Below, piece by piece: positions 11,978-12,157 of a stretch of 15,399 nucleotides of DNA. The notes under the pieces are model-generated. The model had not been told where the DNA came from and did no database searches. It saw only the letters and a program-made list of their open reading frames with translations. How positions within the stretch are numbered: position 1 is the first letter of the stretch; each line of letters opens with the position of its first letter. A program made the position numbers and the translations under genes. The DNA is from a virus (Duplodnaviria; Heunggongvirae; Uroviricota; Caudoviricetes), in the IMG/VR virus record IMGVR_UViG_2778261088_000008; one strand, 5' to 3'.

Positions 11978-12157
11978 TTACCGCCAGTATTCAATGCACA
12001 TGACCGCCATGAACACCCCTAAAAAAAGGGCATTTATATATCCAAATATTAATATCAAAACATCAACTTTTTCCATATACCTTGCTGTGAAGATGATGGG
12101 CATACATGATGCGAACAACCAGAACGCAACAAACAAAAACTGCAATGCGTTTTTCAT
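11978..12157 (-). CDS. Small hydrophobic two-TM membrane protein (59 aa), function unknown
   Basis: ATG 12157 preceded by a strong SD (minus strand TGTAGGAGGAATA-ATG). Protein MKNALQFLFVAFWLFASCMPIIFTARYMEKVDVLILIFGYINALFLGVFMAVMCIEYWR has two predicted TM helices. The track ORF starts further upstream at a GTG with no SD. Confidence 0.5.
   Translation of the reverse strand: MKNALQFLFVAFWLFASCMPIIFTARYMEKVDVLILIFGYINALFLGVFMAVMCIEYWR

Follow-up and report, generated by a model that had tools for sequence, protein, structure and literature searches.

A predicted small inner-membrane protein gene carried on an accessory cassette next to hok/sok in Qin-type prophages of Escherichia coli

The stretch of viral DNA analyzed here (15,399 nucleotides (nt), IMG/VR record IMGVR_UViG_2778261088_000008; hereafter, the window) is a Qin-type lambdoid cryptic prophage of Escherichia coli, with 99.9% identity to the Qin prophage of the ATCC 8739 type and to PhiR42_1. 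The subject of this work is a short open reading frame (ORF) that starts with ATG, occupies positions 11978–12157 of the minus strand, and encodes, in 59 codons plus a stop, the product MKNALQFLFVAFWLFASCMPIIFTARYMEKVDVLILIFGYINALFLGVFMAVMCIEYWR. Genes of the minus strand are arranged in the order dicC, a ydfX/DUF977 fusion, an S-adenosylmethionine methyltransferase gene, a DUF7167 pseudogene, a phrog_660-type pseudogene, the ORF, and a transposase gene; flxA, ydfV, relBE, hokD, rem, ydfU, and the Q antiterminator gene follow further on. A preliminary description of this DNA, made from the sequence alone, had placed the ORF downstream of interrupted reading frames and just before a transposase insertion. 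This position, which borders the decayed early region, was confirmed, as the pseudogenes upstream contain frameshifts or internal stops, and the transposase gene is located at 10336–11643 of the minus strand. The features of the ORF itself and of its immediate surroundings are as follows.

11978–12157, minus strand: coding sequence of the predicted two-helix membrane protein, stop codon included (ORF translation, a paralogue with 41% identity, constraint, hydrophobicity, and an AlphaFold2 model).
12162–12167, minus strand: Shine-Dalgarno sequence AGGAGG, followed by the spacer AATA (4 nt) and the ATG.
11936–12277, minus strand: AT-rich accessory cassette of 342 bp, composed of a 120-nt leader, the ORF, and a 42-nt tail.

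A longer version of the same frame, beginning with a GTG codon (72 amino acids (aa), 11978–12196), is present in the program listing of ORFs. The extension is not conserved: the paralogue described below has an in-frame TAA six codons before its own ATG. The AGGAGG sequence 4 nt before the ATG, which had been singled out as a strong ribosome-binding site, is indeed present at 12162–12167 of the minus strand. This hexamer occurs four times on the two strands of the window, which is near the chance expectation, so it is its placement at a start codon that is informative. In the minimum free energy fold of the predicted leader, AGGAGG is unpaired, and the folding energy of the 181-nt leader (−34 kcal/mol) is close to that of shuffled sequences (−36.1 ± 3.4 kcal/mol; z = +0.62). 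With such an exposed site of its own, the ORF would be translated efficiently. The length of 59 codons is not by itself beyond chance, since the window contains 58 ORFs of at least 60 aa. Given this unremarkable length and the tendency of T-rich DNA to give hydrophobic residues, the question became whether the frame is conserved.

An exhaustive HMMER search, covering 1.84 billion representative proteins, revealed a second clade of the protein (P0037/P0042; hereafter, clade B, the window protein and its close relatives being clade A). Clade B proteins are also 59 aa long and align to clade A without gaps, at 41% identity (E = 1.2e-8). Identities between the two clades at the first, second, and third codon positions are 0.58, 0.71, and 0.47, respectively, and the proportions of non-synonymous (pN) and synonymous (pS) differences are 0.34 and 0.72. 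As a null model, the same 73 substitutions were dealt anew at random over the sequence in 20,000 trials. The observed BLOSUM62 score of 153 was not reached in any of the 20,000 trials, which gave a mean of 60.9 ± 17.8 (z ~5), and the frame remained open in just 1.8% of them. All five alternative frames, including those of the antisense strand, are closed by stops in clade B, and the flanks of the two clades cannot be aligned by blastn. The comparison of clades A and B is strong evidence, at the level of sequence, for purifying selection acting on a putative protein in the sense frame. A lack of conservation in related prophages had been named earlier as an observation that would speak against the gene; what we find is a frame conserved across both clades. 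Start-site context and conservation across loci, taken together, are beyond chance, and the 59-codon ORF is almost certainly a real, conserved, protein-coding gene.

The clade B copy (L206, 8001–8180) is found in chromosomes of E. coli of the B2/extraintestinal pathogenic (ExPEC) type, in the Rac attachment region, between ttcA with an integrase fragment on one side and sitD fragments with uspF on the other. The carriers, which include Nissle 1917, ST131, SE15, and ATCC 11775, number 1045 of 5426 complete E. coli genomes (19%). The prophage remnant at this site is badly decayed. In eight clade B genomes compared, the ORF has no variable sites vs ~27 in 1080 flanking nt. The clade B ORF is thus intact and invariant inside an otherwise destroyed remnant near ttcA. 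No third clade was found in a word-indexed search, a search with a two-clade profile, or a scan of genome contigs; the matches of the word-indexed search were near-identical E. coli and Shigella sequences only.

The preliminary description had also claimed two hydrophobic helices in the product, and translation, Hessa free energies, and AlphaFold2 modeling agree with this claim. The grand average of hydropathy (GRAVY) of the 59-aa product is +1.27. The best 19-residue segments have summed Hessa free energies of −1.25 (residues 33–51) and −0.22 (residues 7–25). The AlphaFold2 model, built from a nine-sequence alignment, contains helices at residues 2–26 and 28–58 with a mean predicted local distance difference test (pLDDT) score of 74, and has the appearance of a generic hairpin. 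The product is thus likely to be a helical hairpin of the inner membrane, as judged from these models. The first transmembrane helix (TM1) would span approximately residues 4–24 and the second (TM2) residues 33–55, with a loop at residues 25–32; by the positive-inside rule, both termini would be cytoplasmic.

Residues that are invariant between the clades fall on one face of each predicted helix. In TM1, these are W13, S17, C18, P20, I21, I22, and T24; in TM2, they are L36, F38, G39, N42, A43, L44, and, usually, G47. The C-terminal E-x-W-R motif (E56, W58, and R59) is also invariant. Stripes of small residues spaced by three positions, together with a membrane-embedded asparagine, are typical of surfaces through which helices associate (glycine-zipper and Asn-mediated packing). 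On the basis of the small-xxx-small stripe and the buried Asn, we propose that the protein would oligomerize or dock onto a host membrane protein via its conserved face. A membrane function would then change during prophage induction or early lytic growth. That the protein is a membrane-acting modulator of the host is a tentative suggestion, which comes from the modeled anatomy.

The DNA around the ORF was compared with that of sister phages. In three of these (L095, L120, and L169), both flanks are present, with 74 nt between them vs 342 nt in the window. The shared upstream flank (12370–12278) is 77–78% identical, and the shared downstream flank (11935–11718) is 92–93% identical to the window. 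Such an insertion/deletion difference between conserved flanks indicates that the ORF rides on a discrete cassette. The GC content of the cassette is 35.7%, while that of the upstream DNA is 45.2%, that of the downstream DNA is 49.1%, and that of the window is 44%. The stop codon of the phrog_660-type gene overlaps an ATG (ATGA), and the cassette starts just after it. We are confident that the ORF is the sole cargo of a discrete cassette that is present in some phages and absent from others. In phages without the cassette, the slot contains a hydrophobic mini-ORF of 27 aa, MTWPEAFTTTGIAMASALVVYSVCRWG (L095, 1398–1481; also L120, L169, and L173), whose ATG overlaps the stop codon of the upstream gene (ATGA) and which matches no family.

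No σ70-like promoter matching at least 9 of 12 consensus positions was found on either strand of 11600–12700, though a consensus scan may miss weak promoters; a laxer scan yielded only 8/12 sites. Likewise, no terminator-like site was detected on either strand of the cassette (11936–12277) by a scan of the same kind, which may miss weak signals. The ORF is on the same strand as dicC, the methyltransferase gene, the DUF977 gene, and other early genes, and the cassette would lie toward the end of the early-right operon, on the side of DicC and the replication genes, between the phrog_660-type gene and hok/sok. Since no promoter of its own was detected, read-through of the early-right transcript is the simplest route of expression, and we consider it rather likely that the ORF is transcribed in this way from an early promoter once DicA/CI-type repression is lifted. 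With read-through, the protein would appear as a delayed-early product after induction and would not be a factor expressed in the lysogen.

Profile searches were run with both the sense and the antisense ORFs against Pfam, PHROGs, NCBIfam, and PADLOC. All were empty, in line with the earlier statement that the protein belongs to no named family; a sequence-profile search of PDB also revealed no relative. With no relative in profile, structure, or viral fold libraries, the function can be argued from anatomy only, and comparison with known systems was made on this basis. The ORF resembles lambdoid morons (HK97 gp15, lambda bor, and lom) in that its cassette is inserted between flanks conserved in sister phages (L095, L120, and L169), differs from its surroundings in base composition (35.7% GC), and contains a single small membrane-protein ORF with its own ribosome-binding site. 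Unlike morons, the cassette has no promoter and terminator of its own detectable by consensus scan on the sense strand of 11936–12277, and it is located in the early-right operon instead of among late or tail genes. The product has no sequence relation to any named moron product.

Other small membrane proteins of phages and bacteria were considered in the same way. Like Hok/Gef, the product is a small hydrophobic peptide of prophage origin, predicted to be membrane-bound, and its gene adjoins hok on the same strand; unlike Hok/Gef, it has two predicted transmembrane helices instead of one and no match to Hok_Gef (PF01848), the Pfam scan having returned no families at E ≤ 1, while its gene has an exposed Shine-Dalgarno sequence, no leader of the mok/sok type, and no antisense RNA signal. 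GhoT, a type V toxin of 57 aa with two transmembrane helices, is nearly the same in size and predicted hairpin architecture; in contrast to it, the ORF is not accompanied by an adjacent GhoS-like antitoxin gene, and no similarity to GhoT or OrtT was detected with Pfam (E ≤ 1), PADLOC, or NCBIfam profiles. Pinholins such as S21 68 have a two-helix architecture and pack through a glycine-zipper surface. The product shares with class II holins and pinholins two transmembrane segments, the predicted N-in/C-in topology, and a stripe of small residues in TM2 (G39-A43-G47). It differs from them in lacking a charged C-terminal tail (its C-terminus is only EYWR) and in having no Pfam or PHROG holin match; holin matches in BFVD were non-significant (E ~3), and the lysis genes (essD/rrrQ/rzpQ, 2186–3816) are ~8 kb away from the ORF. 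Superinfection exclusion factors (T4 Imm, HK97 gp15, T5 Llp, and Cor) are, like the product, very small phage proteins of the envelope, and a lipobox-like motif is a further point of likeness. These factors are expressed in the prophage or early from promoters of their own, and no such promoter was found here by consensus scan; no homology to exclusion proteins (Imm, gp15, or Sie) was seen with PHROG or PADLOC at E ≤ 10, or as a significant BFVD fold. The product of the ORF would be one more small accessory membrane protein of temperate phages.

Among 5426 complete E. coli genomes, 1568 (29%) carry clade A. All clade A relatives come from E. coli or Shigella and are at least 95% identical at the DNA level. 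The gene is also carried by the inducible phages PhiR42_1, vB_EcoS-640R1, and 813R8. Deposits of the protein in GenBank and UniProt describe it only as a "hypothetical protein" or a "membrane protein". The peptide strings are not mentioned by any paper in the searchable full-text literature, the paper on hokW-sokW is silent on any upstream ORF, and nothing relevant was found in the literature on hok, morons, or small membrane proteins. MG1655 lacks window positions 10515–14087 (ydfW there abuts ydfX), so classic screens for small proteins in K-12 could not have seen the ORF. In three phage records (ON470612.1, ON470619.1, and PV340562.1; L004 and L005, 5907–6158, minus strand), an antisense ORF of 83 aa is annotated as "hornerin" or a hypothetical protein in place of the 59-aa frame. 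We rejected this antisense ORF as a real gene. It is hydrophilic (GRAVY −0.37) and asparagine-rich, has no family match, and is interrupted by stops in clade B; the closure of the frame in clade B rules out the 83–85-aa "hornerin" ORF.

Variation within clade A was followed in a sample of viral contigs that had been picked by the hok-promoter pattern and not by the ORF, because loci picked by protein identity would bias the result. Of the 104 viral loci with the cassette in this sample, ~102 have an intact ORF. The ORF is the least diverse segment, with a mean pairwise difference of 1.0%, compared to 2.6% in the leader, 2.6% in the tail, and 7.6–12.9% in the flanks outside the cassette; non-homologous upstream sequences were left out of this tally.

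The neighborhood of the ORF includes the following further features.

12278–12699, minus strand: phrog_660-type early-operon pseudogene, labeled by PGAP as "frameshifted; internal stop" in identical genomes; an intact homologue of this gene matches PHROG phrog_660.
11895–11923, minus strand: presumed hok promoter (TTTGCG-17 nt-TAGAAT), read from the sequence, ~55 nt past the stop codon of the ORF.
11717–11888, minus strand: 5′ half of hok/sok, comprising the leader of hok mRNA, the start of mok, and the sok region (Rfam RF01794 sok, 104.1 bits, E = 3.6e-23).
8444–11717, minus strand: bounded unit, apparently of the IS1202 family (ISNCY), carrying the transposase gene, ydfW, flxA, ydfV, and relBE.

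What separates the ORF from the insertion element (~260 nt) is thus the promoter/mok/sok half of hok, which the preliminary description had overlooked. The presumed promoter at 11895–11923 was assigned by analogy with the hok promoter and mRNA 5′ end of plasmid R1. An intact hok locus lies behind this ORF in vB_EcoS-640R1, and alignment to that phage shows that the transposase-bearing element interrupts the hok locus of the window precisely at the start codon of hok. The start of hok mRNA is ~90 nt downstream of the ORF in every clade A copy examined. In clade B, the 3′ half of hok is located 55 nt past the stop codon of the ORF (80% identity over 66 nt, E = 1e-13). Since hok sequence is also found behind the clade B ORF, the ORF-hok order must be old. 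Phages that carry the cassette and phages that lack it, however, encode the same Hok protein, with no co-variation between Hok and the cassette. This identity, and the fact that both clades keep the ORF after loss or splitting of hok, indicate that the linkage reflects conserved synteny and not a functional pair.

The unit at 8444–11717 has the ends TGT...ACA, and terminal inverted repeats matching at 21 of 28 positions (P ~5e-5), and it is bordered on both sides by a perfect direct repeat of 15 bp, ATAGCCTGCTTCTCC (8429–8443 and 11718–11732). These traits are those of the group of the IS1202 family with long target-site duplications (PMC10132070), and the segment looks like a single transposed unit. 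Exactly this unit separates the hok leader from the coding sequence of hokD. A search for the remainder of hok directly behind the transposase gene was negative; the missing part is hokD, at a distance of 3.3 kb. The arrangement suggests that hokD/relF (8275–8430) and the sok/mok leader (11717–11888) are the halves of one ancestral locus. Insertion of the unit into hok would explain why hokD/relF lacks a sok/mok control region. The same junction between hok and the unit is present in 30 of ~103 sampled viral contigs.

The analysis also yielded several observations on other parts of the window. The "ydfW" of K-12 (window 10330–10479) corresponds to the C-terminal end, in the same frame, of a 435-aa transposase ORF of the IS1202 family (10336–11643), which is open in the window and annotated by PGAP as "incomplete, missing C-terminus" in near-identical genomes. 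The window lacks ~1.4 kb between the DUF977 gene and ydaT that are retained in the Qin prophage of the ATCC 8739 type (L001, 14243–15608), and this ~1.4-kb deletion (in the region of window 13934–14100) creates a fusion ORF of 236 aa at 13663–14373. The cspA thermoregulator RNA (RF01766) has two full-length matches in the window (1584–1969 and 4479–4871, minus strand), upstream of cspI and cspB.

On balance, we favor the reading in which the ORF is an accessory, moron-like gene, the product of which would be made from the early operon as an inner-membrane hairpin and act on the membrane. Several observations weigh against it. No homologue with a known function was found (Pfam at E ≤ 1, PHROG and PADLOC at E ≤ 10, and NCBIfam), and Foldseek comparison of the model with BFVD and PDB returned generic helical hairpins only, with E > 0.9. 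PGAP annotates the ORF in none of the RefSeq genomes listed, of either clade. The six to seven substitutions within the clade A ORF are all non-synonymous, with no synonymous ones among them, and low diversity extends over the whole cassette and is not confined to the ORF; within-clade data alone therefore do not show purifying selection, and recent spread of the cassette would fit them. In E. coli ECMA0423, the clade A copy L216 (3940–4180), beside an intact hok gene, has decayed: one nucleotide is deleted, other frameshifts are present, and the Shine-Dalgarno sequence is mutated (GTCGGAGAT). At first this appeared as a 53% match and then proved to be a frameshifted copy of clade A; its decay implies that some hosts, at least, can do without the gene. 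Lastly, the upstream early genes are pseudogenes in the window, so transcription may not reach the ORF. All but the first two of these points could be accommodated if the ORF was once a gene and is now, in a decayed cryptic prophage, an unexpressed relic with no role, its intactness being due to short length and recent spread of the cassette; decayed or interrupted copies other than L216 (L137, L184, and those interrupted by insertion sequence (IS) elements such as IS1) and the failure to find a promoter belonging to the ORF also favor such a relic. We regard it as possible but doubtful. Clade B is intact and invariant in a far more degraded remnant, where half of hok has been deleted and int and sit are reduced to fragments, and the strong Shine-Dalgarno sequence is kept. 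Moreover, inertness in the window would bear on activity in one host and not on the identity of the element. A further possibility, in which T-rich DNA gave rise to the sense frame by chance and the real feature, if any, is the ORF of the opposite strand, could appeal to the ease with which AT-rich sequence gives hydrophobic ORFs, to phage annotators having called the opposite strand, and to PGAP calling neither; with both the length and the sequence of the sense frame conserved at z ~5 above the null, we consider it extremely improbable.

If the ORF is a gene, its product could also be something other than a hairpin anchored by two helices. Residues 1–17 could form a signal peptide followed by cleavage by signal peptidase II at a lipobox, in which case the product would be a lipid-anchored peptide of 42 aa with a single transmembrane helix, similar to the exclusion lipoproteins T5 Llp and Cor. 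Both clades fit a PS51257-like rule ([LIVMFWSTAG](2)-[LIVMFYSTAGCQ]-[AGS]-C at positions 15–35, with an uncharged h-region and an N-terminal K or R) at Cys18, with the sequences F-A-S-C18 in clade A and V-I-S-C18 in clade B and with K/R in the n-region, and S17 and C18 are invariant between the clades. The same pattern, however, arises in 6.7% of TM1 shuffles, and the hydrophobic stretch continues for six residues past the cysteine (MPIIFT), its total of ~21 residues fitting a transmembrane segment better than an h-region. AlphaFold2 predicts one continuous helix at residues 2–26, and lipoboxes seldom have Phe at −3 or Ser at −1. A lipoprotein precursor is, in our view, an unlikely interpretation of the sequence. 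A type I toxin controlled by an antisense RNA from the plus strand, which the preliminary description had suggested as one candidate, is less probable still. The size and hydrophobicity of the product are like those of membrane toxins, and the ORF lies in an AT-rich island beside a bona fide type I locus, hok/sok, but the suggestion was not supported by what was found. In the predicted fold, the Shine-Dalgarno sequence is free of pairing, and the leader has no unusual degree of structure (z = +0.62). A check of the antisense strand for a promoter and small RNA, as had been proposed, gave no promoter of at least 9/12 in 11600–12700 (two 8/12 sites only) and no Rfam match at E ≤ 1 in the cassette. 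The sole antisense terminator-like hairpin (12345–12360) is disrupted in sister phages, and two transmembrane helices are atypical of type I toxins. Equally improbable is a partnership in which the product would modulate Hok or confer immunity to it, with the ORF and hok forming one module. The ORF is directly upstream of hok sequence in both clades, and phages without the ORF have another small hydrophobic ORF in the same slot. Against this partnership, Hok is identical with and without the cassette; the ORF is retained in clade B with hok destroyed and in the window with hok split by the insertion. Conserved lambdoid gene order explains the linkage sufficiently.

The accessory membrane-hairpin gene that we favor has implications beyond the window. 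Small membrane proteins are systematically under-annotated, and the ORF is a widespread annotation gap. It is conceivable, although we think it improbable, that clades A and B make up an unrecognized family of prophage-derived membrane effectors, of which clade B has been domesticated for a function that the host can select. If so, candidate roles would be phage exclusion or defense and control of host membrane proteins, and the active form might be a lipid-anchored peptide. As a gene under constraint and with a strong signal for translation, the ORF is a candidate for toxicity, exclusion, or modulation of host membrane proteins, and sister phages with and without the 342-bp cassette provide a natural plus/minus comparison.

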